Shown: one piece after another, positions 17,875-63,506 of the stretch | Layout of the letters: each line of letters begins with the position of its first letter | Numbering within the stretch: position 1 is the stretch's first letter | NCBI GenBank assembly: GCA_964016885.1 | Contig: OZ024741.1 | Coordinates: 38,626,001-38,690,000, forward strand | Direction: 5' to 3' | Origin: Eledone cirrhosa | Lineage: Eukaryota | DNA: 64,000 bases | Notes under the pieces: model-generated | The model's database searches: none | Told to the model about the DNA's origin: nothing | What the model saw: the letters and a program-made list of their open reading frames with translations, nothing else | Made by a program: the position numbers and the translations under genes

Positions 17875-17972
17875 ATAATAATAAATTTGAAGACTAAAAT
17901 CCAAAGATGGCTCGATAAGGATAAATATATATCAAATATATAAGAACCGTAGAGCAAATATTTATTAAGATA

Positions 17973-18048
17973 ACAGATTAAAGTTTAAGCAAAGAATCGC
18001 TGCTTTCACCCTTAACGGGATCTTCTGAAACTAACAAAGTCAATCTGT
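17973..18048 (-). ncRNA. Variant hammerhead motif, PLE family A
   Basis: Reverse complement of 15651-15726. Confidence 0.7.
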
Positions 18049-18962
18049 AAACGCAGAACTGGATAATTCAAAAAACGTTGCAACCGGAGGAAGACAGGAA
18101 GACGATACTTTGGTTCGTGGAAACGTTCGCTGGCGAAGATCGGGAAAAAACGAATAATACGTCATTAATAGGAGCGGTGAAAAACAATTACGCGCAAAGA
18201 CAGAACCACGTTTATGGTATAAAAGAGGTCATAGACTAATGTTCTCTTAGGTGGGGCATAGAGACGTTCTCTAGCAATGAACGAAAAAACGAAGATAATA
18301 CGTCATATGTGGAGCGTGAAGAACAATAGCACGCAAAGACACAACCACGTAAATGGTATAGCAGAAGTCGTAGACTAAAATTCTAACTAGGAGACCAAAT
18401 GAATCTCCGCTACAGAGTTAAGAACAAAGTAAATAAATACAATACAGAAGTAATAGAAATAAATAAATACATACACGCAAACAAATACGTACATACACAA
18501 GCATACGCAAAAACTTACCATAGGTATACAAAACCACGCACATATAAATATGTGTGTGTGTGTATGCGTGTATACAAATAAATAAATAATTATATAAACG
18601 TATATAAATAAATAAATACGTATATAACAAGCGCACACACATACCTACATATAAATACACGAATGTTCGGAGACGTAAGTCAACTAAAACATGAAGTCCG
18701 CATATACACACACCCACCATACGTACGAACCTGCATACTCACACAGACGCAAAACTCCTGTATACACATAGCCAAACCATATGTACCAGAATATATAAAA
18801 TTATACTCCAAAACAATCAAATATACGTACGAGAAGGTATACGTACCTTCACAAAACATACGGGTAATATATACTTACCTATGCAAATAAGTAAAGGAAT
18901 AAATAAAACATATACTTAGCTCCCACATCAAGACGTAAAATATCCACGTATAGATCGTACTA

Positions 18963-19470
18963 TCCGTTAGGGTATAACGTGGGGCTGTAATACAGGAAAG
19001 TTTTGTGCAATTTATGTTTACAAGCCGAAATTGCCTCAGATTTCTTGTTTAAGATGTGGTCTATGGCGTAGAGTATTTCCAGGGCCTCAGCGGCGCAGAG
19101 GTCACATGGTCTTTTCTTTTCGACTTCAGATATAAGCTGAAAGTGACGTCATATTCCTTCTTAGAGGGTAACGAAAAGAATGGGTATGCATGTAAAGACG
19201 CTGCTTGAAACTATTGGCGGTTAACCCTATGTAGGCCCTACGGGACGTGGGTGTTACAACCTTACATTTGTAGACAATGTTACTAGAGAGGCATTTCCCG
19301 GATAGGGGGCAATCAGCCCGATTCCTACAATTACAGTTAGTACTAACTACAGGGTTGCACGTGTTCCTACGGCTAGGTAGTTTAGCTAAAGTTGAAGCTG
19401 TGATGTTATGTGCAAGGTTAGGAGTCGTAGAGTAAGAAATTTTAATAGTATTTTTATTAAAAATTTTACT
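18963..19470 (-). pseudogene. Disrupted GIY-YIG domain of the main family A copy
   Basis: Compared with 21085-21630: TGG>TGA and a ~65-nt deletion (equivalent to 21411-21475) at AAAGA microhomology near 19115. Confidence 0.85.
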
Positions 19471-21023
19471 GTTTTATGTGTAGGGGGAAAATGCTTCGTA
19501 ATAAGGGAAAGAAAGAACTTAGCTAAAGGTGTGGCCATCTCCATATTATATGGTGGGTTATACCAACAAATGCGACGGGATCTATTTCTTCTAGGTCTAT
19601 TTTCGTACTCTGTATATGCTACCTTTTCGACAAATCCACTTCGAGCAAGAGCTTCATTGTAATAAGTGGAATGGTCGTTGAAAATACGCTCGTTGGTGGA
19701 AAGACGGGAAAGCCTCAACGAAGCGTTTCTTACCAGGTTCTTGGTTATGCTGGCAGGATGGTTGGAATGCTTACTTATGTAATTAAGCGTGTCATTCGGC
19801 TTTCTATACGGGTAATACAACCCATTCAACAAATTGAGGGTAACGTCGAGGTAATTAACGACCGAGAGATTGGCCTCAACCTGTATAGAGAGGTTGAAGC
19901 CTTTAAAGAAGGCTGTGAGTTCTTTTCTGAACCTATCGAAAGCACGAGGTCCGCACTTAGTCATGGTCAGAAGACCATCGTCACGGTACAAACCACCGCC
20001 CGCGTTGGGGAATTCGTCCTTGATGGAGAAAAGAAGGAAAAGGCCAATAAGATCAGTAACCTCCGCAGAGTCACTGGCGCCCATACTCACGTCGAATGGG
20101 GTACTATTGGATTTTTTAATCCAAATAGAGTCGTCGAAATTAATCACCGACTTTCGGGCATTGAGGATGACATCAACTTCGAAGTCTTTAACCACTGTGA
20201 GTGTTTTAGCGAAATTGATAGCTCTAAGGAGAAGTGGTAAAGTGATGGAGGAGTAGTAATTGTTGATGTCGAATTGGATAAAACGGCAATGTTCCTTGTT
20301 ACATATGCCGTTGAACCAATCAATCACCGCGAAGGAATTGTTCCACAGTGCAAGAGGGGCCACACTTCTAATTTCAGGTATAATTCTATCAAGAATCGTT
20401 TTACTAAGTCTACCTAAATCGGACTTCGTAGGGTTAATAAGCCGAATAGATGGGTTGTTCTGAAAATTGGATTTGTGATCCTTCAGGGTAAAGTGGGGAG
20501 AAATAGGGTCCAGAGGTTCGGTCCGGTCCAGGATGTTGAGATCAGATGTGATTTTAAACCCAGCATCGTTGATTTCATTGATGACGCACCGATTAGTTTT
20601 ACGGTAATCCTTAGTTACAGCATTATGTAGTAGTTGATGGTAAGTACTGCGCTCCACTTGATATAGGTTGCCAGTTTTGTCGGAATGGACGTGCACGGCG
20701 TTAGCATCCTTAATAGAACGAATTCTATTCTTCAGGTCTTGCTGGAAGGAATTGCTCCTATTCCGAAATTTGATACTCCGAATGAGTTCCAAGACATCAT
20801 TTTCGAAGGGTAGCAGTGCTGGGTTCCTCGGGGGGTTATTATAGGTTTTAAATCCAAATTTATCCTGTTTGTTGTCTGCTTTTCGCGGATTATCGAAATA
20901 AAAGGCACGCCAACGCAACCTTTTAATCAACGCATCTGTTTTCTGTATCAGGAGTTTTAGGTATGTTTTCCTGCTTGGTACGGGTATGTTCTTTGTAGAA
21001 ATATTCAGTTGTTGTTTCTGCAT
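19386..21023 (-). CDS. PLE reverse transcriptase (Naiad-like), frameshifted near 19470 before the GIY-YIG domain
   Basis: STKNIPVPS..LIKRLRWRAF, HSDKTGNLY, TLKDHK..RLINP.KSDLG, FIQFDINNYYSSI, FDVSMGASDSAE, GLYRDDGL, YLDVTL, HSNHP. Confidence 0.9.
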   Translation of the reverse strand: MQKQQLNISTKNIPVPSRKTYLKLLIQKTDALIKRLRWRAFYFDNPRKADNKQDKFGFKTYNNPPRNPALLPFENDVLELIRSIKFRNRSNSFQQDLKNRIRSIKDANAVHVHSDKTGNLYQVERSTYHQLLHNAVTKDYRKTNRCVINEINDAGFKITSDLNILDRTEPLDPISPHFTLKDHKSNFQNNPSIRLINPTKSDLGRLSKTILDRIIPEIRSVAPLALWNNSFAVIDWFNGICNKEHCRFIQFDINNYYSSITLPLLLRAINFAKTLTVVKDFEVDVILNARKSVINFDDSIWIKKSNSTPFDVSMGASDSAEVTDLIGLFLLFSIKDEFPNAGGGLYRDDGLLTMTKCGPRAFDRFRKELTAFFKGFNLSIQVEANLSVVNYLDVTLNLLNGLYYPYRKPNDTLNYISKHSNHPASITKNLVRNASLRLSRLSTNERIFNDHSTYYNEALARSGFVEKVAYTEYENRPRRNRSRRICWYNPPYNMEMATPLAKFFLSLITKHFPPTHKTVKFLIKILLKFLTLRLLTLHITSQLQL

Positions 21024-21084
21024 AATGAATATAAGTCAGTAGAGTGCTCAACCGAGGGAGCCAAATAGTAATAATAATATTAAA

Positions 21085-21630
21085 ATGTCTTACTCTACGA
21101 CTCCTAACCTTGCACATAACATCACAGCTTCAACTTTAGCTAAACTACCTAGCCGTAGGAACACGTGCAACCCTGTAGTTAGTACTAACTGTAATTGTAG
21201 GAATCGGGCTGATTGCCCCCTATCCGGGAAATGCCTCTCTAGTAACATTGTCTACAAATGTAAGGTTGTAACACCCACGTCCCGTAGGGCCTACATAGGG
21301 TTAACCGCCAATAGTTTCAAGCAGCGTCTTTACATGCATACCCATTCTTTTCGTTACCCTCTAAGAAGGAATATGACGTCACTTTCAGCTTATATCTGGA
21401 GTCTAAAAGACAACCACACCCAATATAAGTTACACTGGGAGATCCTAGCTAGGGCTAGATCGTATAACGGAAATAAAAGACCATGCGACCTCTGCGCTGC
21501 TGAGGCCCTGGAAATACTCTACGCCATAGACCACATCTTAAACAAAAAATCTGAGGCAATTTCGGCTTGTAAACATAAATTGCACAAAACTTTCCTGTAT
21601 TACAGCCCCACGTTATACCCTAACGGATAG
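21085..21630 (+). CDS. Intact PLE GIY-YIG endonuclease domain in the inverted arm
   Basis: CNCRNRADCPLSGKCL, NIVYKCKV..AYIGLT..FKQRLYMH, CDLC..E..I, LNKKSE..CKH. Confidence 0.85.
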   Translation: MSYSTTPNLAHNITASTLAKLPSRRNTCNPVVSTNCNCRNRADCPLSGKCLSSNIVYKCKVVTPTSRRAYIGLTANSFKQRLYMHTHSFRYPLRRNMTSLSAYIWSLKDNHTQYKLHWEILARARSYNGNKRPCDLCAAEALEILYAIDHILNKKSEAISACKHKLHKTFLYYSPTLYPNG

Positions 21631-22541
21631 TAAGATCTATACGTGGATATTTTACGTCTTGATGTGGGAGCTAAGTATATGTTTTGTTTATTCCTTTACT
21701 TATTTGCATAGGTAAGTATATATTACCCGTATGTTTTGTGAAGGTACGTATACCTTCTCGTACGTATATTTGATTGTTATGGCGTATACTTTTATATATT
21801 CTGGTACATATGGTTTGGCTATGTGTATACGGGAGTTTTGCGTCTGTGTGAGTATGCAGGTTCGTACGTATGGTGGGTGTGTGTATATGCGTACTTCATG
21901 TTTTAGTTGACTTACGTCTCCGAACATTCGTGTATTTATATGTAGGTATGTGTGTGCGCTTGTTATATACGTATTTATTTATTTATATACGTTTATATAA
22001 TTATTTATTTATTTGTATACACGCATACACACACACACATATTTATATGTGCGTGGTTTTGTATACCTATGGTAAGTTTTTGCGTATGCTTGTGTATGTA
22101 CGTATTTGTTTGCGTGTATGTATTTATTTATTTCTATTACTTCTGTATTGTATTTATTTACTTTGTTCTTAACTCTGTAGCGGAGATTCATTTGGTCTCC
22201 TAGTTAGAATTTTAGTCTACGACTTCTGCTATACCATTTACGTGGTTGTGTCTTTGCGTGCTATTGTTCTCCACGCTCCACATATGACGTATTATCTTCG
22301 TTTTTTCGTTCATTGCCAGAGAACGTCTCTATGCCCCACCTAAGAGAACATTAGTCTATGACCTCTTTTATACCATAAACGTGGTTCTGTCTTTGCGCGT
22401 AATTGTTTTTCACCGCTCCTATTAATGACGTATTATTCGTTCTTTCCCGTTCTTTGCCAGCGAACGTTTCCACGAACCAAAGTATCGTCTTCCTGTCTTC
22501 CTCCGGTTGCAACGTTTTTTGAAATATCCAGTTCTGCGTTT

Positions 22542-22617
22542 ACAGATTGACTTTGTTAGTTTCAGAAGATCCCGTTAAGGGTGAAAGCAGCGATTCTTTG
22601 CTTAAACTTTAATCTGT
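22542..22617 (+). ncRNA. Variant hammerhead motif, PLE family A
   Basis: Same sequence as 15651-15726. Confidence 0.7.
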
Positions 22618-22781
22618 TATTTTAATAAATATATATTTATATATATATATATTAATAAAAGAAATTCCAACTTTGTCTGATTTACACGTAAATTTACACG
22701 AGTTAGTTGGAATTCCTTTTATTAATATAATCTTCTATACACAATCATACACACCCGTGTATATCTATTATCTATCTATCC

Positions 22782-26189: not shown

Positions 26190-29105
26190 TATAAGAAGTT
26201 GGGACAGTGAAATTAAAATACAAGTCATTCTGATCACATTGAGTTCTTCATGTAGATTGGGCCCCGCAACCGACAGTGGTGAATTCTGTGTGCGCATATA
26301 TATATATAGATATATGTGTGTGCACGTGCAGGGTTTAACATGGATGTGTTGGTCACACAAAGGCATGGTCTGTCAACGAATAAACCTGATTCTACAGAAT
26401 TGGTCTCTGGTCTTTAATAGTAGTGATTCCGTGCGTATGTGTGTTTATATTTTATGACAATTCTATTGGGGTGATAACCCGTTTAGTTTTGGTTTAAATT
26501 TGTTAAGGAATAGATTTTCTTTGTTTATTCTTTGTTGCTGTGTGAACGAATCTGAGCACTTGTAGAAGGGGAAGATTTTAAAGTTGGGTAGTGTCATTCC
26601 TGCGCAGTTCGCAATATGGCTGCTCAAGGGGATTTTTCTTGTGTTAGCGTCCCGGATTTGTTGGCAGTGGATGGTCATTCTTTTGCGTAATGAGGTGCCC
26701 GTCTGTCCAATGTAGTTGTGTTTGCACCCACCGCAAGTTATTGCGTAAATCAAGTTCTCCGAGTTGCAGGTGAAATTGTTTTTTACTGTAAATGTTTGGC
26801 CATCTTTGAATGTAAATGTTTGTCCTTCAGTGAGGTAGAGGCACGTTCCACAGTTTGTTCTACCACATTTGGTAACTGTAGGGTTGAGGATTGGTTTGGG
26901 TATATTTGGTCCAGTGAGAATGCGTTTAAGTGATTTGGGTTGTCTTTTACTTTTAAGGATCTTGTGTGTTTCAAGAATAGACTTCATTTTTACATCTTTA
27001 AGTAGGATGGGGAGGTTTTTGTGTAGGTGATCAAACATTTCGGTATTTCTGGGGTTGAAAGTGGATACATATGGCAGGGTGTTGAGTGTGGTTTTCTGTT
27101 TTGGATTGTTAAGTTGATGGGGATTTAGGTGTTTTGCCCTGTCTATTCCATTGTTGATTATTTCAAGTGGAAAGGCTCTTAAGATAAGGGTGTCTTTTAG
27201 TTCCTTTAGTCTTTGCTCCCGTTTAGGTGGATCTGATACTATGGTACATATACGTTTGGCCAAATTGTAAGGAATGTTAAGTTTTTTATGTTTTGGGTGA
27301 CTTGATGTGAAAAAGAGGTATTGCTTGGAATCTGTGGATTTATAGAATATATCTGTATCTAATTTCCCGTCTATTACAGAGATGAGAATATCCAAGAAGG
27401 CTAATTCCTTATGATTGGATTCCATTGTGAATTGTATGTTATTATCTATGTTGTTTATCATGTTTTTAAACGTAGTAAGTGAGTTCATGTCTTCTTGCCA
27501 TAGGATAAAGCAGTCGTCTAGATATCTTTTCCAATTGGCTTTGAGGTGTGTGTGGAAAGAGTCTCCAAATAAGAGAAGGGACTGACTGTATATTTGTTGT
27601 TCATGGAATCCCATAACTAGGTTGGCATATGTGGGTGCTACTTTCGTGCCCATTGCCGTACCTGATACTTGTCTGTATGTTGAACCATTGAATGTGAAGT
27701 AGTTATTTTGTAGGATAAAGCGGAGTCCGTCAGTGATAAAATCTGTGTTGATGCGTGTCGGTATTTCTGATGGGTGTGTGTTAAGCCAGTATTGGACTGC
27801 TGTTATTCCATAGTTGTGAGGTATGTTTGTGTAGAGGTTTATTACGTCAAAGGAGACAAGAATTGTATTTGCACTTACTGTTTTAGGGAGGTGTTTCAAC
27901 ATGTCAAGGTCATCTCGTATGTAGCTCTGTATATGTTGTAGAAAGGGTTTCAGTAGGATGTCCAGAAAGTTGCTAAGTCTGTGGGTTTCACATGTAGGGC
28001 CTGCTATAATTGGCCTGAGTTTTAGGTCTTCTGGTGGTGTTAGTTCAATGTAATTGTTGGTTGAGGTGTCACATGCATCGTTTATGGGTTTACATTTGTG
28101 GAGTTTCGGTAAGCCGTAAAAAGAGCTTGTATTGCATTTGAAGTGGCTTATATAGTTAAACTCTTTTGTGGTTAAGCTGTTGCGGTATTTATTCAGTAAG
28201 GTCAAAAGGTTCCCCATTGTTTTGGTGTGTTTGTAGTTTTCTGTTTTTTCATAGTATGTGTTGTTTTCTAAAATGTTAAGTGCGAGGGTCCTATAGTAGT
28301 CCGTATTCATAATGACAACAGTACTGCCTTTATCGGCTTCTTTGATAGTTATCTCAGGGTTGTTTCTAAGTGTGAATAATTCTTCCCATTCGTGTGTAGA
28401 TAGGTTTGATTTCGTGTGTTTATTTGTAATTTTTTCATAGGGAAAGTTGGTGATGTGTTCGCAGTACGTGTCCAGTGCTTTATTTCTTCCCTTTTGTGGG
28501 CAGAAATTGCTTTTATTTCTAACCAGTGATTCGTCTTCAGTGTTGGTGTCGTTGTGAAAGAATTCCGTTAGTCGCAGCATTCGGCAGTATTCCATGATGT
28601 CATCCTTCATTTCGGGGAAGTTTGGTTTACGTGGTGTAGGTGTAAATTTCAGGCCCTTACTTAAAATGTTGATTTGTGTGTTGGTTAGAGGTGTCTTTGA
28701 GAGGTTGATTATTTTTGGTTTCTCCTGAGGGGGGGCCATCGAGTATCCTGGTATTTCAGGCTTTTCCCTAAAAAAGGAATGTAGTTTTGTGTGTGATTAT
28801 ATTTTGTTGGTCTGTTGCGTGTGGGTCTGTAGCTTGTTGTTTCATGAGGGTGAATGTGATGGTGGGGGTGGTATGTGTTGTGGTTGTTGATGAGCAAGAG
28901 TTCTGTTGTTGGTTCATGTGGTCTGGGTGCGTTATTTCTGTGGTACAGAGTGTTGAGGTTGGGGGGTTGTCTTTTGTTGGATTGAGGGTGATGTCTGGTG
29001 TGGTTGTGGGTAAGTTCTGTTGTGATTTCAAGTGGTCTGGGTGGATTTCTTCTGAGGAATGTGGTGTGTGTGTTGTGAGTTGGATCTATGTTATTTCGTC
29101 GTTGG
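26190..29105 (-). mobile_element. Neptune-like PLE including UTRs
   Basis: ORF plus flanks; 3' UTR 26220-26295 is homologous to 63870-63935; boundaries approximate. Confidence 0.75.
26463..28739 (-). CDS. Intact PLE polyprotein (RT + Zn-knuckle + GIY-YIG), Neptune-like
   Basis: IINLS..LSKGLKFTPTP, IKEADKG, FYGLPKLHK, LRPII, SFDVINLYTNIP, GTAMGTKVAPTYANL, WKRYLDD, FLDI, SSHP, CGRTNCGTC, NLIYAITC..C..YIGQT..LRKR. Confidence 0.95.
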   Translation of the reverse strand: MAPPQEKPKIINLSKTPLTNTQINILSKGLKFTPTPRKPNFPEMKDDIMEYCRMLRLTEFFHNDTNTEDESLVRNKSNFCPQKGRNKALDTYCEHITNFPYEKITNKHTKSNLSTHEWEELFTLRNNPEITIKEADKGSTVVIMNTDYYRTLALNILENNTYYEKTENYKHTKTMGNLLTLLNKYRNSLTTKEFNYISHFKCNTSSFYGLPKLHKCKPINDACDTSTNNYIELTPPEDLKLRPIIAGPTCETHRLSNFLDILLKPFLQHIQSYIRDDLDMLKHLPKTVSANTILVSFDVINLYTNIPHNYGITAVQYWLNTHPSEIPTRINTDFITDGLRFILQNNYFTFNGSTYRQVSGTAMGTKVAPTYANLVMGFHEQQIYSQSLLLFGDSFHTHLKANWKRYLDDCFILWQEDMNSLTTFKNMINNIDNNIQFTMESNHKELAFLDILISVIDGKLDTDIFYKSTDSKQYLFFTSSHPKHKKLNIPYNLAKRICTIVSDPPKREQRLKELKDTLILRAFPLEIINNGIDRAKHLNPHQLNNPKQKTTLNTLPYVSTFNPRNTEMFDHLHKNLPILLKDVKMKSILETHKILKSKRQPKSLKRILTGPNIPKPILNPTVTKCGRTNCGTCLYLTEGQTFTFKDGQTFTVKNNFTCNSENLIYAITCGGCKHNYIGQTGTSLRKRMTIHCQQIRDANTRKIPLSSHIANCAGMTLPNFKIFPFYKCSDSFTQQQRINKENLFLNKFKPKLNGLSPQ

Positions 29106-29116
29106 TTTATGTAAGG

Positions 29117-30760
29117 GGCATTTCTATGTTTAGATATTATTCAAATTTCTATGTTGTCTATGTTACCGTCGTCGTGTTGTTGTCTGGCATGTTCATATAG
29201 TACTGAACCGTTTTTTCGTCCTTTTAGTTCCCCCCCAGTGTTGGTCTATCCTTTCACCTATGCTACGAGCTGTCTCGCCTATGTATGCTGTTGTCATGTT
29301 TCTGCAAGTACCCTCTGAACATCTTATGCTATAGAATACGTTTCTAGTTTTACAGTTTATCCGGAGGTTTACTTTACATATAATACAATTCCTATTAGTA
29401 CAGTGGGTTTTCTTAAAAGAGTATATATATTGTTATACTTGGGGAGGGTCATATTTGTGTAATAATATTGCCAGAAATAATAACAGAACACACTCACTGT
29501 TTGGTTGGTTTTCGCATCTGTGTCTTTTATATCGGTTAATTTAATTTATTCGGTCCTCAATGTACCATCGACTGACCAACGGTCAAAAATACAGATACAA
29601 TATAGACACAAACACATATATATATAGTCTAACAAAGTTCTTACGTTGCACATCTGCAACATCGTCAGTGGTGCTATTATGTTTCCTCCTGTTGTATTGT
29701 ATGCCTACGCCATCTTTATTTAGTCTGTTTATTTATTTATTTATTTATTTATTTTTGTCTTCTCTGCGTATGCGTTTGCGTGTATGTATAGTGTTTGATG
29801 TGCGATCGTGTTTGGGTGACTGTGTATTGGTTATTGTATTCTAGCTTAGTATACTAGTGTGTGTTTATATGTTTGTTGTTATTGTGCTTGTGTATGTATT
29901 TATTCATTTATTTATACTTCTCTTAGGTCAGTATTGTTTCTTTGGGTGTTGTTGTTATTCCATTCTTTTTTTCTGTTTAGCCTTGGCCTTCTAAGTTCTA
30001 TTTCGCTGGCCTCTCTGATTTGCCTATCTGCTGGGTCATTTCTATGTTTAGATATTATTCAAATTTCTATGTTGTCTATGTTACCGTCGTGTTGTTGTCT
30101 GGCATGTTCATATAGTACTGAACCGTTTTTTCGTCCTTTTAGTCCCCCCCCCCCCAGTGTTGGTCTATCCTTTCACCTATGCTACGAGCTGTCTCGCCTA
30201 TGTATGTTGTTGTCATGTTTCTGCAAGTACCCTCTGAACATCTTATGCTATAGAATACGTTTCTAGTTTTACAGTTTATCCGGAGGTTTACTTTACATAT
30301 AATACAATTCCTATTAGTACAGTGGGTTTTCTTAAAAGGGTAGGTTTTGCTGATCAGGAATTTTATGTTGGTTCCTGACTTTTCTACCACCTTAATCTTT
30401 AAGTGGATCTTTCTCAGGGCCTTTCTACACTGGTTAGCTAATTGCGTCCACAAACATGACACTCTGGTATCTCTGGTTGTCCTACCATGAGGTGGCTTGC
30501 CCTATCTTATGTCTAGTCCTATCTAAGCTATTCCATGATTTGCTCCTGTATAATGGGCAAATTCCTTTCATGTTCAGTTCTATGAGGGTCTTATACTTCT
30601 CCGTGGCTCCTTCATATACTCATAAACACAGTGAGTGTGTTCCGTTATTAATTCTGACAACATTATTACACAAATATGACCCTCCCCAAGTATAACAATA
30701 TTTGTTTCGACACGCGATTTCATATAAAAAACCTCGAAAACTAATTCATCGCCGTTATAT
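29117..30760 (-). mobile_element. PLE family B: tandem 3' fragments (29117-29425, 29430-30620) with inverted tail (30622-30760)
   Basis: CKTRNVFYSIRC..YIGETARSIGERIDQH GIY-YIG; near-identical to 44587-45770. Confidence 0.85.
29631..29672 (-). ncRNA. Family B hammerhead, core-mutated (GAAA>GUAA)
   Basis: CTGACGA-tGTTGCAgatgTGCAAC-GTAA-GAAC-TT. Confidence 0.55.
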
Positions 30761-31796: not shown

Positions 31797-31923
31797 GAGG
31801 TTATATTTAATTTGTTGGGATTCAACAAGCTTAAACATATAACTGATATAAAGCACTCAACAAGTTAGTGGAGTAAATACACAATATATTAATAAATGGA
31901 AACTATATTTATAAAACCATATT

Positions 31924-31989
31924 TATTTTATTATATATGTTTCAAGGGCAACCAAGGCAAATTATGGTGTGCTTTCATCAGATAAAATA
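31924..31989 (-). ncRNA. Type I hammerhead motif, family I
   Basis: tattttat-CTGATGA-AAG[..]CTT-GAAA-catata-TA-ataaaata; 8-bp stem I. Confidence 0.7.
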
Positions 31990-32125
31990 CAGATTTGTTT
32001 TATAAATAAATATTGACATACCCGGAAAAAAGACAACCTCAACGGTTGGAGCTTCCAGGAAGCTCCAACCGTTAAGGTTGTATGTCATGCATCCAACTGT
32101 TAAGGTTGTATGTCATGCATCATCT

Positions 32126-32192
32126 TATTTTATCTGATGAGGACGTACAGTTGAAGTTAGCTCAGTACCTCTGAAATATGTATAATAAAATA
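32126..32192 (+). ncRNA. Type I hammerhead motif, family I, different stem II
   Basis: tattttat-CTGATGA-GGAcGTAC..GTACcTCT-GAAA-TAtgTA-TA-ataaaata. Confidence 0.75.
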
Positions 32193-32237
32193 TACTTGAT
32201 CACACGAATGTCTATTTTTGTTAATATTTTGAATTAA

Positions 32238-32365
<128 letters not shown>

Positions 32366-32399
32366 CATATATATATATACATATATATATATATACACA

Positions 32400-32477
<78 letters not shown>

Positions 32478-32814
32478 TGTGTGTGTGTATCTATATATAC
32501 ATATATATATGTCTGTGTATATGCACGTTTTTGAATATGGGTATATATATCTGCCTGCATGTGCAAGCGTATATATGTGTGTGTGTGTGTGTATGTGTGT
32601 GTGTGTGAGTGTGTATATATCTATGTAGGTGATATTTTGAAATATGTGTTTGGTTGCCTGAAAACAACCAACAAGTAGTTAGAATGACGCTTCAGCAACG
32701 TCCGTAACGTTTGAGTTGGAACAGATATATGCTAAGCCAGCAGTTCTGCATTGCCTACGTGACTGACCAAGTGTATCTAGAGCTAAGATGGAATGAAATG
32801 AAGGCGATGGGGGA

Positions 32815-35856: not shown

Positions 35857-36519
35857 CGTGCGTGCATACATATATACATACATACGTGCATATATATATA
35901 CATACATAAGTGCTTACATATATGCATACACACACACGTACACACACATATATATATATACATACATACGTGCATACATACATACATAAATAAATACATA
36001 CATACATATATACATACATACATACATATCAACGCGACCAGTCGTACATGTCGGCGTGGGAGACTATTCATTAAATATAAGATGAATACTATCTCCGACA
36101 GTAATGCCAAAACTACCAGCCGTGTTAACTAACAAGATATTCTTCTAATTATACCCACTAAATACATCTTTTATTCAAATTCGTAGAGATACCCGACTAA
36201 ATACTAAATTTATTTTACAAGGATTAGCTACAAGCAGCATGGATGAACACATCATCAGCATCAATAACATTAGTGGAGAAACAAAGAAAAAAACAAAACA
36301 AAAAACAAGAAAGGTAAACAAAATTTCTTTAGGTAACGAAATTATAAATAGTATTTTAATTTTTTTTGTTAGTTACAAACTTAGTAACGATTTGTTTAAT
36401 TGTTATAAGATGGCTAAAATAGAGTCTTCTGTGGTCTATATGAATAGAATGCAGCTATACTTGGACGAAACATTCAAAACTAAATCACTTCACAGCCACA
36501 CAATAACATGGAACCGGAC

Positions 36520-37100
36520 ACCATGCTTTGACGCATAGAGTTACGGCCCTTGCCATTCTGAGTTCAAATCCCGCCGAGGTTAACTTTGCCTTTCATCCTT
36601 ACGGGGTCGATAAAATAAAGTACCAGTAATGCACTGGTATAATTGCTGGCCTTGTGCCAAAAGTAGAAACAATTATTCATTGTAAGTCCCCCAGATCAAA
36701 CATGCAATAAATAACACGTGCTACAGGCCGCCATGTTACTAGACTTTCTAGCTTCCAGACTGACCATCAACAAACAACAGTAATACTCATACAGTCCCTT
36801 GAAACAATCACGCCAGTAAGACATTCGACACCACGTGTACTAACTGATTACACCTCGACTTTTATGGAATCTCACAGCCACCTAGATCAACATCAAGACG
36901 CTGTCAATAATAATTGTTTCTACTTTTGGCACAAGGCCAGCTATTATTCCAGTGCATTACTGGTACCTTATTTAACGATCCCTTAAGGATGAAAGGAAAA
37001 GTTAACCTCGGCGGGATTTTTAAACTCAGACTGGAAAGGGCCATACCTCTATGCTGCAAAGCTTGGCATCCGACCCTCCACCAATACTGCCAATCCACCA
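36520..37100. mobile_element. Two SINE copies, tail-to-tail (36520-36675 +, 36910-37100 -)
   Basis: Family sequence on opposite strands. Confidence 0.8.
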
Positions 37101-37399: not shown

Positions 37400-40120
37400 A
37401 AAAATGCTATCATATATTACAAAAATATAAAAAAAAGATTGCTACCCTACGGAAAACTATGGGATATGTGACAATGCTCTCCACATGCAAACAAAAATAA
37501 ACAAAGAAAACTACATTCGTCACCAACAAAGAGTGAAAAATAAAGTAGAAACGATACTTAGAGACAGGATAAACAGAACTCTTCAATACACGTCGATCAT
37601 CCTCAAACAAGAATTGGGAGCTGTCAGCTAGAAATGTCGGCACCAGAAGAGGGTGGCTGAAAGTAAAATGATTAATAAAAGATTCAGACGAAACAAAACA
37701 TCAATTTATAGAGATATGAAGGGCAAAGTAATAAATGTCACTGAGGCTCCATTCCAGAAAGACATAGATTCCTTCTGGAGAAAAATATTGGGTGAAGAGA
37801 ATAATTTCAACCAAGATACAGTATGGCTGAAAGAGATTCAAAATAATTATTGCCACTACACAACAACAAAAATATACAGTATCAATGATGATACCTTGAG
37901 AATGTGATAGTAAAACTCCAAGATAAGAAAACACCAGGAAGAGACTAAATTTGACATTCTATCGGATGTATCTGACCAGCAAACTCCCAAGGGAGATGCA
38001 CATATACCAGGGTGGTTGACATTAGCACAAACAACAAAGACACCCACTTGGCAAAAACATACCGACCCATTGTATGCCAGAACCTAATGTATGAAATATA
38101 TACAGCCTGTCTGAATCTATTTCTTCAAGATTACTGTGACAATGATAACATCATCACAGATGAGCAAGCAGCTGGGAAGCAGACTGTTTGGGAGTGTGCT
38201 GAACAACTCCTAATTAACAAAACCGTAATGTCAGAGGTGCGGCAACATAGGAGGAATATGGTTACAATCTAGCTGAATTACAGGAAAACATTCTGTTCTG
38301 TTTCCCACTTTCGGATGATAGAGGTCTCTCTACTTGCTAAAGACTCAGACACTATTTTCAGGGCCATAGAAAACCTATTTTCTTCTTGGTCAACTATTTT
38401 CAAGTTAAATTCAGAAAAGGGTGACTCTATTTTCACTGATAAAATAGAATATATAAGGTATATTTCAAAGAGATATCTGTCTGTGTTACTGTTTATCCTG
38501 TCGTTAAAACCCTTGTGCTTTCTGCTGAGGAAATGTGAAGGATACATCATTGGCTCACAGGAGGACAGAAATACGAACTTAACCCATAATTTCTTTGTGG
38601 ATGATCTGAAACTCTATGCCAAGTACATAGATGGGATGAAGAAAAATCTTGACCTGGTTACGACGTTCTTGAAAAATATAGGAATGGAGTTTGGCCAGGA
38701 TAAATGTTCATATATGATTGGAAAGCGAGGAAAAACTACAACCCAATCGAGCAACATTTTTATCAATAGCATAACTGTTTCACCGATATCTGACAAGCAT
38801 TGCAACAGATACCTAGGGATAAATGAGAATATATCCTATGATGGTCTTTGTAATAAGGAATGCGTAACCAAGGAGTATTACACCCGATTAAGAAAAATAT
38901 GGTCATCTGAAATCTCTGCGCACAATAAAACAATGGCTCTCAATGTGTTTACTGTGTCTGACCAAACACCAACATTCGGAATACTCGATTGGACGATAGA
39001 TGACATCCAAGCAATTGATGTTAAAACCCGAAAAATCCCAAACAACCCCGAAAATGTCCACACCAACTGTGACATAGATGCCTCTGCCTGGAACGTAAAC
39101 AGGGAGGCAGAGGCCTAACATCAGTCCAAACAGCATTTGAGTGTCACATCATATCCGTTTGACAAAGTCTACACACCAATAAACGTAGTAGTCCCTCTAT
39201 CGAGCAAGTCTAGCTACATGAGACAGATAAGATCATGGGAGTTGGGAAGGAGTTCCTTGAGAAATACTCCGTGCATGATAATCAAAAGCTCTCTCCTAGG
39301 GTAATTGCGCAACAATACCGCAGTGAATCCATGGATGACAAGCTGTATGTTTATCAGCAAAACATCATGCATGATATGTTGCCGGAAATCTCCAGAGTGA
39401 GAGTAATATAGATACGTAAAGCAGTCTATCTTGGTCCAACAATTGCTATATTGGCTCCCATTTTGAAGTATATGCTTTTGCAATCCAAGAACAGAAAATC
39501 AATACATAATATCCGATCTACTAAAGAGATAGGGATGCAGGCAAAACACCTCGATGTGACAACAGATGCAGACTCTGTGGTATTAAAATCGAAGGTGACA
39601 CCCATGTCATAAGCAGCTATCCAAAGATGCCATAATAGTACTATCTACCTACATGATTTAGTGGTCAAAACACTATACAATGCAATCCATAGAAAAGATA
39701 GCCCCGACAATAAACATATGAAAAGTTACTGCAATGTGGAAGACATACTTATATAATATGAAAGAGTATTGGTGGAATCTTCCAATCAAACCCCTAATAA
39801 AACGCAAGCATAACAGACCAGATATAAGATGGGACAGGGAAAAGAAGGCATGCACAGTAGTGGAAGTCAGCTACCCACAGATGTCAATATAATATTAAAG
39901 ATTAGCTAAAAGGAGAACATCTGTGCAGAACTAATGAGGAATCTGCAGATACTCCACCCTGACTATGCTTTTAGATTCGTACCTGTGATTATTGGGGTTC
40001 TGGGATGTTACTCTCTGCCTCAGTACAAATCATAAAAAGCTGGACTCCACAGAACCAGGAAGAAAACGACTAGTTAGGAACTGTAAAAATATGTAAAACA
40101 TTCCAAAAATTCTACATGCA
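37400..40120 (+). pseudogene. Decayed R4/Dong-like non-LTR retrotransposon (RT + CCHC + restriction-like endonuclease)
   Basis: YRPIVCQNLMY, EQLLINK, LLFILSLKPL, THNFFVDDLKLYA, IGMEFGQDKC, YLGI, CRLCG..HVIS, EYWWN..KHNRPDI, VEVS, FVPVIIG, VKICKTF; many stops and frameshifts. Confidence 0.85.
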
Positions 40121-41104: not shown

Positions 41105-41569
41105 TTGAAATAAACGCACTTGTGTCCTGAGGGTATTGCGGGTGTACATATACACATATACCGGTATATTTGCTTGCTTCTATCAATAATATATAATAGA
41201 GAACTCAATAATAATCCAAAGAGTACTATATAGTTTCTATGAATGTACTGGCTATTCGGTCTTTATGTTGCAACTATTAGTTTCGCCATTACACGGCTCT
41301 TTATATAACGTGTGGTAATATATTGTATTATATCTGTGAAAGAAGAAGAATGAAAGAAACATACGTAGTGTTTCTGTGGTTTTGTACTTGGTATGAAAGT
41401 TGCATGTTTTCATTTTCTGTCGTATGAAGGCATTGATATACAATGTGTTTATGCATAATAGATATACCAGACAACAGTATAGGAGTGCTGTATACCTGTA
41501 TTTCAAAATTATTATTTCTTATCAGCAACTCTTAAATATTTTTTGATAAAAGCTTTTTTACTCATGCTA

Positions 41570-41757
41570 GCATTGGATTGGCAGTATCGGTAGAGAGTTG
41601 GACGCCATACTTTGCAGCAAAGAGTTACGGGCCTTTATGGTCTGAGTTCAAATCCCGTCGAGGTTAACTTTGCCTTTTGTCCCTACGAGGTCAATAAAAT
41701 AAAGTACCAGTAATACACTGGGATAATTGCTGGCTTGTGCCAAAAGTAGAAACAATT
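41570..41757 (+). mobile_element. SINE, near full length
   Basis: Head GGATTGGCAGTATCGGTAGAG, B-box, body. Confidence 0.8.
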
Positions 41758-41832
41758 AATTAGCAATAGCACTAACACAGCAATATTAGATGCTGTATAT
41801 TAAGGGGAGAAGATATTCCATTTTATTGAATA

Positions 41833-44502: not shown

Positions 44503-44586
<84 letters not shown>

Positions 44587-44591
<5 letters not shown>

Positions 44592-46530
44592 GTAATATTG
44601 CCAGAATTAATAACAGAACACACTCACTGTTTGGTTGGTTTTCGCTTCTGTGTCTTTTATATCGGTAATCTAATTTATTCGGTCTTCAATGTTGCCATTG
44701 ACTGACCAACGGTCAAAAATAATACAGATACAATATAGACACAAACACATATATATAGTTTATCAAAGTTCTTTCGTTGCACATCTGCGACAACGTCAGT
44801 GGTGCTATTGTTTCCCCCGGGTGCATTGTATTTTCTACGCCATCTTTATTTAGTCTGTTTATATATTTATTTATTTGTTTATTTTATTTTGTCTTCTTTG
44901 CGCATGCGTTTGCGTGTGTGTATAGTGTTTTGTTTGATGTGTGTTCGTGATTGGGTGACTGTGTATTGGTTAATGTATCTTTACTAGTGTGCGTTTATAT
45001 GTGTTTGTTGTTATTGTGCTTGTGTATGTATTTATTTATTTATTTATCTATTTATTTATTTATACTTCTCTTATGTCAGTGTTGTTTGTTTGGGTGTTGT
45101 TATTCCATTCATTCTTTCTGTATAGCCTTGGCCTTCTAAGTTCTATTTCGCTGGCCTCTCTGATTTGCCTATCTGCTGGGTCATTTCTATGTTTAGATAT
45201 TATTCAAATTTCTATGTTGTCTATGTTACCGTCGTGTTGTTGTCTGGCATGTTCATATAGTACTGAACCGTTTTTTCGTCCTTTTAGTCCCCCCAGTGTT
45301 GGTCTATCCTTTCACCTATGCTACGAGCTGTCTCGCCTATGTATGTTGTTGTCATGTTTCTGCAAGTACCCTCTGTACATCTTATGCTATAGACTACGTT
45401 TCTAGTTTTACAGTTTATCTGGGGGTTTACCTTACATATGATACATTTCCTATTAGTACAGTGGGTTTTCTTAAAAGGGTAGATTTTGCTGATCAGGGAT
45501 TTTATGGTGGTTCCTGGCTTTTCTACCAGCTTAATATTTAAGTGGGTCTTTCTCAGGGCCTTTCTACACTGGTTAGCTAATTTCCCTCCAGGGGTAGCTT
45601 CCACAAACATGACACTCTGGTATCTCTGGTTGTCGTACCATGAGGTGGCTTTCCCTATCTTATGTCTAGCCCTATCTAAGCTATTCCATGATTTGCTCCT
45701 GTATAATGGGCAAATTCCTTTCATGTCCAGTTCTATGAGTGTCTTATACTTCTCCATGGCTCCTTCGTATACTCTGACTCTGTCTCTTTGGTTGTAGCCA
45801 GAGAACTGCATGCGATTGATGAAGTGTTGGATGTGTCTTTCCATTTCTGTTGGGTCGCACATGCGGGACACATTCTTCATCACTCGTACCAAATCTGCGA
45901 TCAGAATATTAAACTTAGCACTACTGGATATTGCTGAGTTTTTGAGTATCAGGTATTTGGAGGCCATGGGTTTAGCATAGTGTGAGTGGAGAATTTGGGC
46001 TCTCTCGTCTATAGTGTTAATCCAGAGTTCCGTGTCTAATACAGGTAGTCTATTGTTAGAGTGTTTGGAAGGGTAGTCGATAGTTACAGTTATACTCTGG
46101 TGTATGGAATTAACTATCTGCTTGATGCTTTCCATTGTGCTACGTTCTAAATCAAACTTGTAGTGCTCTCTAGTGGGGATGTTCTTATAACTATATTGAT
46201 ATCGTCTACGTAACGAGAGTACATGATGAGGTCTATGGAGCACTCATTAAGGAGATCTTTAAGTCTCCTTTCCCACCATACCATAAAAAGGTTGGCAACA
46301 TCAACAGCTATGCTGACGCCAATGGCTGCTCCCTCATTTTGGGTGTAGATCTTCTCGTTGAACTTGAATATGTGGCCCTTAGAGTAGTCTTGATACTAGC
46401 CCCTATTGCATGTGCGACCATTTTTCTTACCTGATCATTGCTTTGGGGGGTCCTTATAGCTTTGGTCCACCCAATCCACTTTCCCATGGGAGTCTTTTTA
46501 GCCATTGAGGTTATGGTGGGGGGTCTGGAA
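44587..46530 (-). mobile_element. PLE family B, 5'-truncated and frameshifted
   Basis: RT C-half and GIY-YIG followed by 3' UTR with HHR remnant (44763-44803, core CTGACGT). Confidence 0.88.
45284..46243 (-). pseudogene. PLE family B RT-thumb plus GIY-YIG fragment
   Basis: DYPS..RLPVLDTELW, YAKPMAS, RMQFSGY, VMFVEATPGG.LA, C..C..C, NVVYSIRC..YIGETARSIGER; continues out of frame to RQIREA. Confidence 0.85.
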
Positions 46531-46879
46531 GTATATACTTTCCTTATGCATATTAACGGCTGAGCAGCTTAATTTGCATATCGAGTGAGTTAATCGGCCG
46601 GGTGCACCGAACACGATAAACGGAAAAAATGAAACGAATTTTCATTTTTCACTCTTAGTACGGCTGTTACTTAAATATAAGTATGTATACGTACATACAC
46701 ATATGTATACAGACGTACCGTAGTATGTATATATATATACATGCACACATATATACATGTACGTATGTATCACCGAACATTTATTATAATGCTCGGTGTG
46801 TTTGTAAACAAACATCCCGAATTAAGCCGTACAGTGTCTAGCAACTATCGTTGCTCATTTGTTCAACACTGACAAAGGA

Positions 46880-46922
46880 ACGCTGTACTAGTTTCAAGCT
46901 TATTAGCTATCGTCAGCAACGT
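46880..46922 (-). ncRNA. Type I hammerhead ribozyme, family C, intact
   Basis: Reverse complement of 12005-12047. Confidence 0.85.
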
Positions 46923-47373
46923 ATACTTTCCTGCCAGATGGTTGAAAGTCTGAAAGTATATACTTTCCTTGTGCATATTAACGGCTAAGCAGCCTAATTT
47001 GCATATCGAGTGAGTTAATCGGCCGGGTGCACCGAAAACGATAAACGGAAAAAATGTAACGCAATTTCATTTCTCACTCTTAGTACGGCTGTTACTTGAA
47101 TATAAGTACATGTATACATGTGTGCATGTATGTATATATATATACATACTACTGTACGTCTGTATATATATATGCATGTACGTATACATACTTATATTTA
47201 AGTAACAGCAGTACTAAGAGTGAGAAATGAAATTTCGTTTCATTTTTTCCGTTTATCGTTTTCGGTACCCCGGCCGATTAACTCACTCGATATGCAAATT
47301 AGGCTGCTCAGTTGTTAATACGCATAAGGAAAGTATATACTTTCAGACGTTCAACCATCTGGCAGGAAGGTAT

Positions 47374-47416
47374 ACGTTTCTGACGGTAGGTAATAAGCTT
47401 GAACCTAGTACAGCGT
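47374..47416 (+). ncRNA. Family C hammerhead, inactivated core
   Basis: CTGACGG and GAAC substitutions. Confidence 0.6.
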
Positions 47417-47619
47417 TCCTTTGTCAGTGTTGAACAAACGAGAAACGATGGTTGCTAGACACTGTACGGCTTAATTCGGGATGTTTGTTTACAAACACAC
47501 CGAGCATTATAATAAATGTTCGGTGAATCCATACGTACATGTATATATGTGTGCATGTATGTATATATATATACATACTACTGTACGTCTGTATACATAT
47601 ATGTATGTACGTATACATA

Positions 47620-47717
<98 letters not shown>

Positions 47718-47877
47718 TATATTTACATACACATATATATATATACATATATATATATACACACACACACATATATCTATATCAGAAAGAATCTTGCTAA
47801 ACAAATTCAGAAACGATATATATATATATATATATATATAATTATATACATATATATAACTGTATCCATTTAAATCC

Positions 47878-52098: not shown

Positions 52099-52269
52099 GA
52101 CGCTCAGCTTTATAATATTAGAGGTAGATACGGAAAGTAAAAGAGTGTTGTCATATAGAGAGTGAAGAGAGACAGAGAATAAAGCAGTTAAATTATAGAG
52201 AGGGTGAAAGAGGAAGATATATATATATATATATATATATGTGTTTGTGTGTGTGTGTGTTTACATGTC

Positions 52270-52699
52270 AGTATAACTCAGATTACATTTATTGTATTCC
52301 GCCATGTAGAGCGAAATTTTCTTTTTTATTTGAATTTGACAAAGCCGGCCATTTATCGCTCGTATACAGGAAGCTGACTGGCCAGTCTGCTGATATGCAA
52401 ATCAGGCAGATCAGTCACTGTGTATTTTTGAAAATAGCATATATTTTCACTAGCTCTGACAGTTTGGCAGGTGAACAGTGAGCTGTACTGATGAAGGGTG
52501 ATACCCAGAAACATCAGTGTCTGCAGTTCTGTTTACATGCCAACACAAGAGCAATAATGAAGTGTTCATTCTAGTGACATGGCTATAAAATTGAAGGTTG
52601 TTTGCATAATTGCAAACGAATCGAATGTTATTATTAAAATTCGAAAAACTCAGATTACATTTATTGTATTCAGCCATGTAGAGCGAAATTTTCTTTTTT
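52270..52699 (+). mobile_element. ORF-less HHR-bearing family D: ~1.15 units of a ~371-nt monomer
   Basis: ACTCAGATTACATTTATTGTATTC..GCCATGTAGAGCGAAATTTTC at 52277 and 52648. Confidence 0.85.
52481..52528 (+). ncRNA. Type I hammerhead ribozyme, family D
   Basis: agctgta-CTGATGA-aGGGtgataCCCa-GAAA-CAtcagTG-TC-tgcagtt; stem I extends with gtgaacag/ctgtttac. Confidence 0.85.
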
Positions 52700-52709
52700 A
52701 CATATATAT

Positions 52710-52787
<78 letters not shown>

Positions 52788-52799
52788 TTTTTTTTGTAC

Positions 52800-52978
52800 A
52801 AAGAGGATGTGGTTTACCATGACGCACCACAGTACTCATTACTGAGGGTAGTAGAGTGGGTAATATAAAAAAAGTCAGGAGCCCAACGGCTGAGCTCCGA
52901 CCGTTTCGTTCGACAGCTAGATCAGATCTAGCTGTCGAAACGGCAGGAGCTCAGCCGTCGTGGTCCTGACTCTTTTCA
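52800..52978 (-). mobile_element. Family J diverged copy, half-hammerhead fold-back
   Basis: GACAGCTAGATC/GATCTAGCTGTC-GAAA-CGGC..GCCG-TC; arms ~52869-52976. Confidence 0.7.
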
Positions 52979-54721: not shown

Positions 54722-55069
<348 letters not shown>

Positions 55070-55125
55070 CACACACATATAATATATATATATATGTATG
55101 TATATATATACATACACACACACAA

Positions 55126-55250
<125 letters not shown>

Positions 55251-55267
55251 CACACACATATAATATA

Positions 55268-55300
<33 letters not shown>

Positions 55301-55324
55301 ATATATACATACATACACACACAA

Positions 55325-55392
<68 letters not shown>

Positions 55393-55433
55393 TATATATT
55401 AATAAATGGAAACTATATTTATAAAACTATATT

Positions 55434-55499
55434 TATTTTATTATACATATTTCAAGGGCAACCAAGGCAAATTATGGTGCACTTTCATCAGATAAAATA
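55434..55499 (-). ncRNA. Type I hammerhead, family I (element 55397-55570)
   Basis: tattttat-CTGATGA-AAG..CTT-GAAA-TAtgTA-TA-ataaaata. Confidence 0.75.
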
Positions 55500-55572
55500 C
55501 AGATTTGTTTTATAAATAAATATTGACATACCCGGAAAAAAGACAGCCTTAACGGTTGGAGCTTCCTGGATA

Positions 55573-59735: not shown

Positions 59736-59782
<47 letters not shown>

Positions 59783-60917
59783 TAATTTTGCGAGGTTATT
59801 GATATGAAATCGTGTGTCGAAACAAATATTGTTATACTTGGGGAGGATCATATTTGTGTAATAATATTGCCAGAATTAATAACAGAACACACTCACTGTT
59901 TGGTTGATTTTCGCTTCTGTGTCTTTCATATCGGTTAATTTAATTTATTCGGTCCTCAATGTTACCATTGACTGACCAACAGTCAAAGATACAGATATAA
60001 TATAGACACAAACACATATATATAGTCTAACAAAGTCCTTTCGTTGCACATCTGCAACATCGTCAGTGGTGCTATTATGTTTCCTCCTGTTGTATTGTAT
60101 GCCTACGCCATCTTTATTTAGTCTGTTTTTTAATTAATTAATTTATTTTTTGTCTTCTCTGCGCATGCGTTTGCGTGTGTGTATAGTGTTTGATGTGTGT
60201 TCGTGTTTGGGTGACTGTGTATTGGTTATTATATTCTATCTTAGTTTACTAGTGTGTGTTTATATGTGTTTGTTGTTATTGTGCTTGTGTATGTATTTAT
60301 TTATTTATTTATTTATACCTCTCTTAGGTCAGTATTGCTTGTTTGGGTGTTGTTGTTATTCCATTCATTTTTTCTGTTTAGCCTTGGCCTTCTAAGTTCT
60401 ATTTCTCTGGCCCCTCTGATTTGCCTATCTGCTGGGTAATTCCTATGTTTAGATATTATTCTAATTGTTATGTTGTCTATGTTACTGGCATGTTACTGGC
60501 ATGTCTATGTTTAGATATTATTCTAATTTCTATGTTGTCTATGTTACTGGCATGTTCTATAGTACTGGCATGTTACTGGCATGTTCTATAGTACTAGCAT
60601 GTTCACTATACGAACATGCCAGACAACAACACGACGGCAACATAGACAACATAGAAATTAGAATAATATCTAAACATAGAAATGACCCAGCAGATAAGCA
60701 AATCAGAGAGGCCAGCGAAATAGAACTTAGAAGGCCAAGGCTAAACAGAAAAAATGAATGGAATAACAACAACACCAGTCAATGGTAACATTGAGGACCG
60801 AATAAATTAAATTAACTGATATAAAAGACACAGAAGCGAAAAACCAACCAAACAGTGAGTGTGTTCTGTTATTAATTCTGGCAATATTATTAAACAAATA
60901 TGACCCTCCCCAAGTAT

Positions 60918-60923
<6 letters not shown>
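59783..60923. mobile_element. PLE family B 3' fragment folded back at ~60600
   Basis: Minus arm 59783-60600, plus arm 60607-60923 with internal deletion; ATGTTACTGGC stutters at the junction. Confidence 0.85.
60029..60070 (-). ncRNA. Family B hammerhead, intact core
   Basis: acca-CTGACGA-tGTTGCAgatgTGCAAC-GAAA-GgaC-TT-tgtt. Confidence 0.7.
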
Positions 60924-60976
<53 letters not shown>

Positions 60977-62549: not shown

Positions 62550-62638
62550 CAACCAATAAACGTAATGAAAGAGTAACCAATCATCCTTGTTATCTTATTT
62601 CACTATATATATATATATATATAGTTTTAATATAGATG

Positions 62639-62689
62639 AGATTCTACAGGACTAGAACTGTTTCATTCTTTAGAAATCATCAGGAATCT
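62639..62689 (-). ncRNA. Family G hammerhead
   Basis: Reverse complement of 63358-63408. Confidence 0.8.
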
Positions 62690-63129
62690 GGCTTTCCAAA
62701 ATAAATGTTATGGTATTTATATCTTTTTAGGTGGTAGGAGAGGGCGGGGAGTGGGGTCGGTGGACGTCATTGGTTGAAAGAAAAGGGAATTCATTAAAAG
62801 CTAATACTTAAAGGCTATAATGTATATTTAGAGTGACAAAGGCAGAGAGAATTCTATAAACAAGTTCAGAATCAGGTGCCACTCCTTATTTTTAAGTTTC
62901 TCTTAAGCTAACAATGCCTATATTTCAGGTGTCTATAAGATGGTTGGGGGGTCGGTCATGGTTGATGGATTTAAAGAAAAGGGAAATTCTTTAAAAGCTA
63001 ATTCTTTTAAGCTCTACTGAGAGTGACAGAGGCCAAGAGAATTCTATAAACCAGTTCAAAATATTGGGTACCTATCATATTATTGTCATGTTTCTCTTAA
63101 GCTATATTCCAGGTGTCAACAGACACATT

Positions 63130-63184
<55 letters not shown>

Positions 63185-63357
63185 TGTTAGCTTAAGAGAA
63201 ACTTAAAAATAAGGAATGGCACCCCAATCTGAACTTGTTTATAGAATTCTTTCTGCCTTTGTCACTCTAAATATAAATTATAGCCTTAAAGAATTAAGTT
63301 TTAATGAAATCCGTTTCTTTCAACCAATGACCTCCACAACATTTATTTTGGAAAGCC

Positions 63358-63408
63358 AGATTCCTGATGATTTCTAAAGAATGAAACAGTTCTAGTCCTG
63401 TAGAATCT
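63358..63408 (+). ncRNA. Family G hammerhead
   Basis: agattc-CTGATGA-tTTCtaaaGAAt-GAAA-CAGttctagtcCTG-TA-gaatct; 6-bp stem I, 4-bp helix III, GUA site. Confidence 0.8.
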
Positions 63409-63506
63409 CATCTATATTAAAACTGTTATACTCTGCTATGTATTGAGTACCTTACTTACTGTGGTTACCTCCGATTCAACCCGGAATAACTTACCTATAT
63501 ATATAT

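Follow-up and report, generated by a model that had tools for sequence, protein, structure and literature searches.

Family D of Eledone cirrhosa, a high-copy ORF-less hammerhead repeat that carries insertion marks of Penelope-like elements

We analysed a 64-kb stretch of Eledone cirrhosa DNA (GenBank assembly GCA_964016885.1, contig OZ024741.1, positions 38,626,001 to 38,690,000), hereafter the window, which is rich in microsatellites, low in GC and dense in repeats, with RT Pfam matches in two of the nine ORFs tested. One of its repeat families, D, has its main copy at 52275-52700 (window positions), with the following parts:

52275-52328, plus strand: 5' redundant segment, 54 nt from the 3' end of an upstream unit (18 nt plus the 36-nt tail), forming a partial tandem or pseudo-LTR (pLTR); 53/54 identity to 52647-52700
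52329-52700, plus strand: single complete 372-nt ORF-less unit with 37% GC and a tailed 3' end
52362-52415, plus strand: 33-nt internal hairpin repeat region of variable copy number, with loose ends at 52381 and 52415 (14-19 contigs per run)
52465-52542, plus strand: stem I of a hammerhead ribozyme (HHR), 8 bp (52480-87/52522-29), with 7-bp and 5-bp extensions
52488-52521, plus strand: type I hammerhead core, predicted to cleave after C52521
52600-52617, plus strand: hairpin whose top (52605) is the start of the second copy's inverted arm
52653-52671, plus strand: small hairpin with the tail-less 3' end in its loop (52660-52664), a candidate internal RT start site judged by the fold, the loose ends behind 52664 and the second copy's left end at the equivalent of 52665
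52665-52700, plus strand: tail of about 36 nt, of the type found in Penelope-like elements (PLEs); the second copy has it at just one of its ends

The direct repeat that bounds the main copy (52275-52328 and 52647-52700) is 54 nt long, 98% identical (53/54, one mismatch) and spaced by 372 nt. The initial annotation had described an ORF-less monomer of about 371 nt with a 50-nt terminal repeat at 52277 and 52648; the repeat and the lack of an ORF stand, with the repeat lengthened to 54 nt and placed at 52275 and 52647 (1-4 nt off) and the unit length corrected to 372 nt. On the circularised unit the longest ATG ORF reaches 56 aa on the plus strand and 75 aa on the minus strand, and the unit contains no RT plus GIY-YIG ORF. 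A 129-aa ORF at 52450-52839 on the minus strand has no Pfam match. Folding of the unit gives z = -4.8 as a linear and -5.2 as a circular molecule. The flanks mirror each other, with (TA)n(TG)n on the left (52207-52268) and (CA)n(TA)n on the right (52700-52795), and 52258-52270 resembles the internal segment 52530-52542 at 12 of 13 nt; the main copy was possibly inserted at the centre of a palindromic microsatellite, with short filler. No clear target-site duplication is seen.

Type I hammerhead anatomy can be traced letter by letter in the unit, with CUGAUGA at 52488-52494, A52495, a 4-bp stem II (52496-99/52503-06), A52507, GAAA at 52508-11 and GUC at 52519-21. Stem III and its loop are short and near-palindromic, and the 8 bp of stem I include two G.U pairs. 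A helix of 7 bp plus an 8-bp extension had been annotated here; the helix is present and divides instead into 8 bp followed by the 7-bp and 5-bp extensions. Using a strict type I scan, we found six HHR sites in the window and none in any of 60 block-wise dinucleotide shuffles. Rfam returns no gathering-level match across the whole window, and on 52270-52700 it gives no HHR model at E<=10 and three chance-level non-HHR matches; we therefore base the HHR call on motif anatomy.

A52495 stands opposite A52507 at the base of stem II, an A.A that had been annotated in the main copy and that we find in both window copies. File S2 of PMC8557442 gives 26 Hydra-clade HHR rows, of which 15 lack pairing at this base (14 U.U and one U.C, counted by eye) and none has A.A. 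Our literature search for an A.A pair at HHR positions 10.1/11.1 returned nothing relevant. The A.A under stem II varies a trait already known from Hydra-clade PLE HHRs.

The main copy carries a private letter at 52515. The majority letter of the sequencing runs described below, which the second copy shares, makes stem III fully self-complementary, at a predicted -8.8 versus -3.5 kcal/mol; a dimer-type HHR architecture with a self-complementary stem III is described in PMC4209133. In a monomer fold model that ignores tertiary contacts, the loop III strand pairs with the HHR core with p about 1.0, and the active fold costs 8.4 kcal/mol relative to the minimum, a gap that shrinks to 6.2 once the run-majority letter is used. 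The core is therefore predicted to be blocked as a monomer, and the stem III duplex of a dimer is predicted to be stable. No variant at or above 5% is listed on the 15 core places or the A.A, but with 26 of 359 places variable this lack does not reach significance (P = 0.32).

BLAST reveals one further D copy in the window. It had been annotated at 2962-3485 as a diverged copy with an inverted arm, and it does belong to D, in two parts:

2961-3397, minus strand: one-unit sense part that extends from near the start of the tail (equivalent to 52293) to the tail-less end (equivalent to 52665)
3396-3487, plus strand: head-to-head inverted, 5'-truncated arm with tail, equivalent to 52605-52700

The sense part, read from 3397 to 2961 on the minus strand, is 87% identical (329/378) to 52281-52665. 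It has 66 nt extra in the 33-nt repeat region, where three repeat copies lie at 3204-3302, and amounts to one unit to within about 3 nt plus two extra 33-nt repeats. Tail and unit start are contiguous in it, so the second copy crosses the same unit junction as the main copy. Both of its outer ends are 3' ends of the element, one at 52665 and the other at about 52700, and each abuts (TA)n. Each window copy contains one HHR, that of the second copy (3134-3100) being decayed, with U4 changed to C and the top of stem I broken. The inverted arm is absent from the main copy.

We also examined D in three DNA runs of one sample, available as Logan contigs, over the region 52262-52705. The runs contain 0.45-0.47 of the sampled words and may come from another individual or a close relative; their contigs are short (at most 263 nt among the records listed), none spans 52262-52705, and no locus with two intact HHRs turned up among them. 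Contigs that match D number 7,879, 8,054 and 8,811 per run, and an exact 21-nt pattern of the unit has no match in metagenome, viral and prokaryote contigs. Coverage is unbroken across the whole unit and lies mostly in its 3' 200 nt: summed contig depth, which is not a copy number, climbs from 3-4e4 at 52322-52336 to about 6-7e5 at 52622-52636, and the 3' step at 52595 may be exaggerated by a private indel of the main copy near 52586-52594. At the HHR cut site (52521/2) there is no depth step, nor a cluster among the 18 loose-end rows listed. Among the 15 joints listed, six cross the unit junction, leading back 359-375 nt from 52686-52696 to 52318-52328 and occurring in all three runs; one has 90 letters on its shorter side, more than the 54-nt repeat. 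Four of the 15 switch strand, at four different places. In the loose-end rows listed, those behind 52664 run into (TA)n in 50 (X2) and 40 (X3) contigs, and those behind 52686 (42-59 contigs) have AT-rich continuations of low agreement. At eight places of the main copy nearly all run depth has a different letter. The second copy sides with the runs at seven of nine majority places (the eight plus one further), and the two misses adjoin an indel; the main copy thus carries about 2% private changes.

Two regions of the window are related to PLEs, each with one long ORF:

26463-28739, minus strand: intact PLE-like ORF of 758 aa with RT (PF00078), a C-terminal GIY-YIG-like region and a CX4CX2C linker
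19386-21023, minus strand: Hydra-type PLE ORF of 545 aa, whose RWR, DKT and YRDDG motifs match the Hydra-clade alignment by eye

The CX4CX2C linker is ascribed to Neptune PLEs in PMC8557442. The 758-aa ORF has 717 relatives at E<=1e-30, and many of the best 120 of these 717 are annotated with RT and GIY-YIG; the best relatives among the matches listed are 55-59% identical. Relatives labelled as bivalve symbiont bins are read as host DNA. HHR scans near this ORF found none. The 545-aa ORF has no Pfam match, and its frame is apparently broken upstream of the endonuclease part. Its region (14643-22632) includes an inverted arm (21066-22632) and a 3' fragment (14643-15884) that is 96% identical, and about 150 nt from the element's (TA)n end near 18027 sits an HHR-like core that is degenerate and has U.U below stem II. 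Compared by pairwise BLASTP, the two ORFs show no significant match (best E = 0.064).

The window contains further repeats. A second ORF-less HHR family (11609-12414, 46523-47759 and 2653-2867; cores at 12011, plus, and 46916, minus) has a unit of about 420 nt, U.U under stem II, a fold-back and a (TA)n end. Another HHR family, at 62623-63424, has identical cores arranged head to head (62683, minus, and 63364, plus), U.U under stem II and a longer stem III. An HHR-like family at 31874-32550 and 55037-55570 shows a long stem II and a palindromic stem III, with cores at 32134 (plus), 31981 (minus) and 55491 (minus). A family of tandem and inverted pieces occupies 29115-30750, 44543-45774 and 59747-60962; the minus strand near 30350-30150 resembles by eye a GIY-YIG 3' part, probably of a truncated PLE. 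An RT fragment of 267 aa at 38315-39118 (plus; PF00078, E 1.2e-6, just under the curated cut-off) is probably a decayed LINE-type element, and a dispersed repeat of 130-200 nt has at least ten window copies (1-131, 4623-5153, 13334-13532, 36515-37099, 41569-41768 and others). Comparison of the D unit with the two PLE regions and five other window repeats gives no match above the shuffle maximum (0/7) and thus identifies no autonomous partner of D in the window. The initial annotation assigned D the same mechanism as two other families, C and E; HHR families with fold-back structure do occur in the window, and none shares sequence with D above the shuffle level.

Between them, the two window copies of D show a pseudo-LTR partial tandem, a head-to-head 5'-truncated inverted arm, a 3' tail and (TA)n targets, and the strand-switch joints of the runs fit PLE structure as well. 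These are PLE traits: PMC8557442 describes pLTR partial tandems, an inverted 5'-truncated copy at the 5' end and a 30-40 bp tail at either end, together with (TA)n targeting in the Hydra clade and a preference for microsatellites in Neptune and Naiad PLEs as well. PMC3846280 reports the same PLE structures and in-trans mobilisation by pLTR sequences alone. D has two 3' ends about 36 nt apart, one at 52664/5 and the other at about 52696-52700, the tailed end being known from the two window copies and the low-agreement loose ends; in PMC11167929, the PLE tail is bounded by two internal sites of RT initiation within a stem-loop. We conclude that D is very probably a high-copy, ORF-less, non-autonomous Penelope-like retroelement, a non-LTR retrozyme whose unit measures about 372 nt (+33n). 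The family is new, the kind of element is known, and no new mechanism is needed for the terminal redundancy, a canonical PLE partial tandem (pLTR) with a tail. Mobilisation in trans by a PLE is the best reading, and the Hydra clade is the most likely source of the enzyme, a guess from target and HHR format.

Spread of D as a PLE-mobilised retrozyme would begin with transcription of source loci that hold at least two units. The type I HHR would need either a protein helper or dimerisation via the self-complementary stem III, and its activity may release unit-length RNA and close it into a circle. An RT/GIY-YIG protein of a PLE, in all likelihood one of the Hydra clade with its (TA)n targets, would then act in trans, nick AT-rich DNA and start RT inside the RNA at 52664/5 or at about 52700, 143-179 nt 3' of the HHR cut, as the junctions suggest. 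Synthesis would mostly halt early; it can apparently pass the HHR site and the unit junction, which would yield one unit plus 54 nt as at 52275-52700, and a head-to-head inverted arm would sometimes be added, as at 2961-3487. This last step is read from DNA structure that is seen, and we infer transcription, dimeric or assisted cleavage, circularisation and the identity of the RT. With its single HHR, the copy at 52275-52700 cannot excise a unit by itself; it is a product, not a source, and a dead end.

The strongest alternative is a variant of this explanation and competes only with its circular-RNA step. It holds that D is the same element with an HHR idle in transposition, that RT copies a linear tandem transcript left uncleaved, or two template-jumped RNAs, and that the 54-nt redundancy is ordinary 5' truncation in the upstream unit; we give it a little less than an even chance. 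Anolis PLE HHR mutants leave insertion unaffected, HHR cleavage being dispensable for insertion in vitro, and no reads end at the cut site in the data described in PMC11167929. Only one of nine Xenopus retrozyme dimers was cleaved in vitro (bioRxiv 10.64898/2026.07.22.740005), and the predicted block of the D core points the same way, as does the lack, at 52521/2, of a depth step and of a cluster among the listed loose ends. A religated circle, however, equally predicts read-through of 52521: going by HHR chemistry, cleavage and religation would restore the genomic sequence at GUC 52521, so junction reads across it cannot discriminate. An idle HHR also leaves aside that mussel, coral and axolotl retrozymes of similar size accumulate as circles (PMC7229834), and that the sense part of the second copy matches the unit length to about 3 nt, as from one lap, in a single case recognised post hoc.

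A circle copied beyond its starting point and a truncated copy of a tandem transcript would account equally well for the terminal redundancy. Within the PLE-retrozyme reading, we lean slightly towards an uncleaved linear multimer or a template jump as template and hold a circular RNA to be nearly as plausible, the unit-length second copy, one post-hoc case, being a hint of a circle. A fuller version, which we regard as tentative and rather unlikely in all its parts, is that a Hydra-clade PLE RT copies a 372-nt circular RNA from two fixed starts, so that one lap gives a unit-length insert and read-through gives a unit plus 54 nt, while a conserved pairing of loop III with the core blocks re-cutting. 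If true, D would supply direct structural evidence that animal retrozymes spread on circRNA templates with PLEs as the driver, as has been proposed.

Other explanations replace the element itself. It is improbable that D copies are 5'-truncated pLTR fragments of a longer autonomous PLE, with a 372-nt period that arose by deletion at a single locus or a handful of loci. Coverage concentrated in the 3' 200 nt, as in truncated PLEs, and an HHR geometry like that of Hydra-clade pLTRs would suit such fragments, yet the tail is joined to the unit start in both window copies, which are 13% diverged, and in contigs of all three runs, the whole unit is continuously covered, and no ORF lies upstream of the HHR. 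A tRNA-derived SINE, a MITE or a Helitron-like rolling-circle DNA element with an incidental HHR-like motif is less probable still: D is short, hairpin-rich and AT-targeted, and inverted arms can mimic terminal inverted repeats, but no tRNA gene was found, the sense strand has no B-box-like match, the arm is 5'-truncated, strand-switch joints fall at variable points and the main copy has no arm. SINE and MITE are rejected on the missing tRNA-like head and the variable arm structure. A local tandem duplication or DNA-level satellite, with a 54-nt repeat peculiar to 52275-52700, could arise by slippage in such microsatellite-rich surroundings and is rejected as having almost no probability, largely refuted because family contigs of the runs and the second copy cross the unit junction, which makes the terminal repeat a family trait and counters the refuting case named in the initial annotation, a local duplication missing from other copies, and because polarised ends, tail and inverted arm are marks of retrotransposition.

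Among known systems, Poseidon, a PLE of Anolis carolinensis (Frangieh et al. 2024, PMC11167929), has two internal RT start sites that bound a 30-40 nt tail in a stem-loop 3' of the HHR, matched in D by the two 3' ends, and shares AT-rich targets with D; Poseidon is autonomous, belongs to another clade and has been tested biochemically, whereas D is described here from its sequence. Hydra-clade PLEs (Craig et al. 2021, PMC8557442) share with D the (TA)n targets, an unpaired N.N under stem II, a palindromic stem III and an HHR near the 3' end (about 90-210 nt away in most rows of File S2). In contrast to them, D has no ORF, has A.A rather than U.U or U.C, and shows no sequence match to the Hydra-type element of the window. 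For HHRs in octopus Penelope elements, our literature search gave only PMC8557442.

D is close to the metazoan non-LTR retrozymes defined by Cervera and de la Pena (2020, PMC7229834), above all to the 350-390 bp repeats of Mytilus galloprovincialis; these authors report circles for mussel units of 350-390 nt and name PLEs as likely mobilisers, a model repeated in PMC7761336. Like these retrozymes it is ORF-less at 372 nt, below 45% GC, present in high copy and strongly self-pairing, with a type I HHR, and its 372 nt and 37% GC fit the short (about 170-400 nt), low-GC, non-coding unit of that class. D differs in being seen as dispersed insertions of 1.0-1.15 units with tail and inverted arm, with no array of two HHRs seen; a blocked HHR core is predicted for D, and PMC7229834 notes one only for some mussel circles. 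In the titles and abstract openings covered by our literature search, no tails or inverted arms are mentioned for retrozymes, and such reports may be in print. As a family D is ordinary, given thousands of such HHR repeats in many invertebrate genomes.

Li, Clavereau and Pollet (bioRxiv 10.64898/2026.07.22.740005) propose that dispersed HHR-repeat monomers hijack PLE enzymes, as we do for D. Inverted arms are not discussed, and the word "tail" occurs 0 times, in the preprint text. Their proposal rests on co-occurrence and pLTR homology in vertebrates, whereas the link for D is an integration signature: the marks of PLE insertion on an ORF-less unit support retrozyme mobilisation by PLE enzymes along a line of evidence other than co-occurrence or homology.
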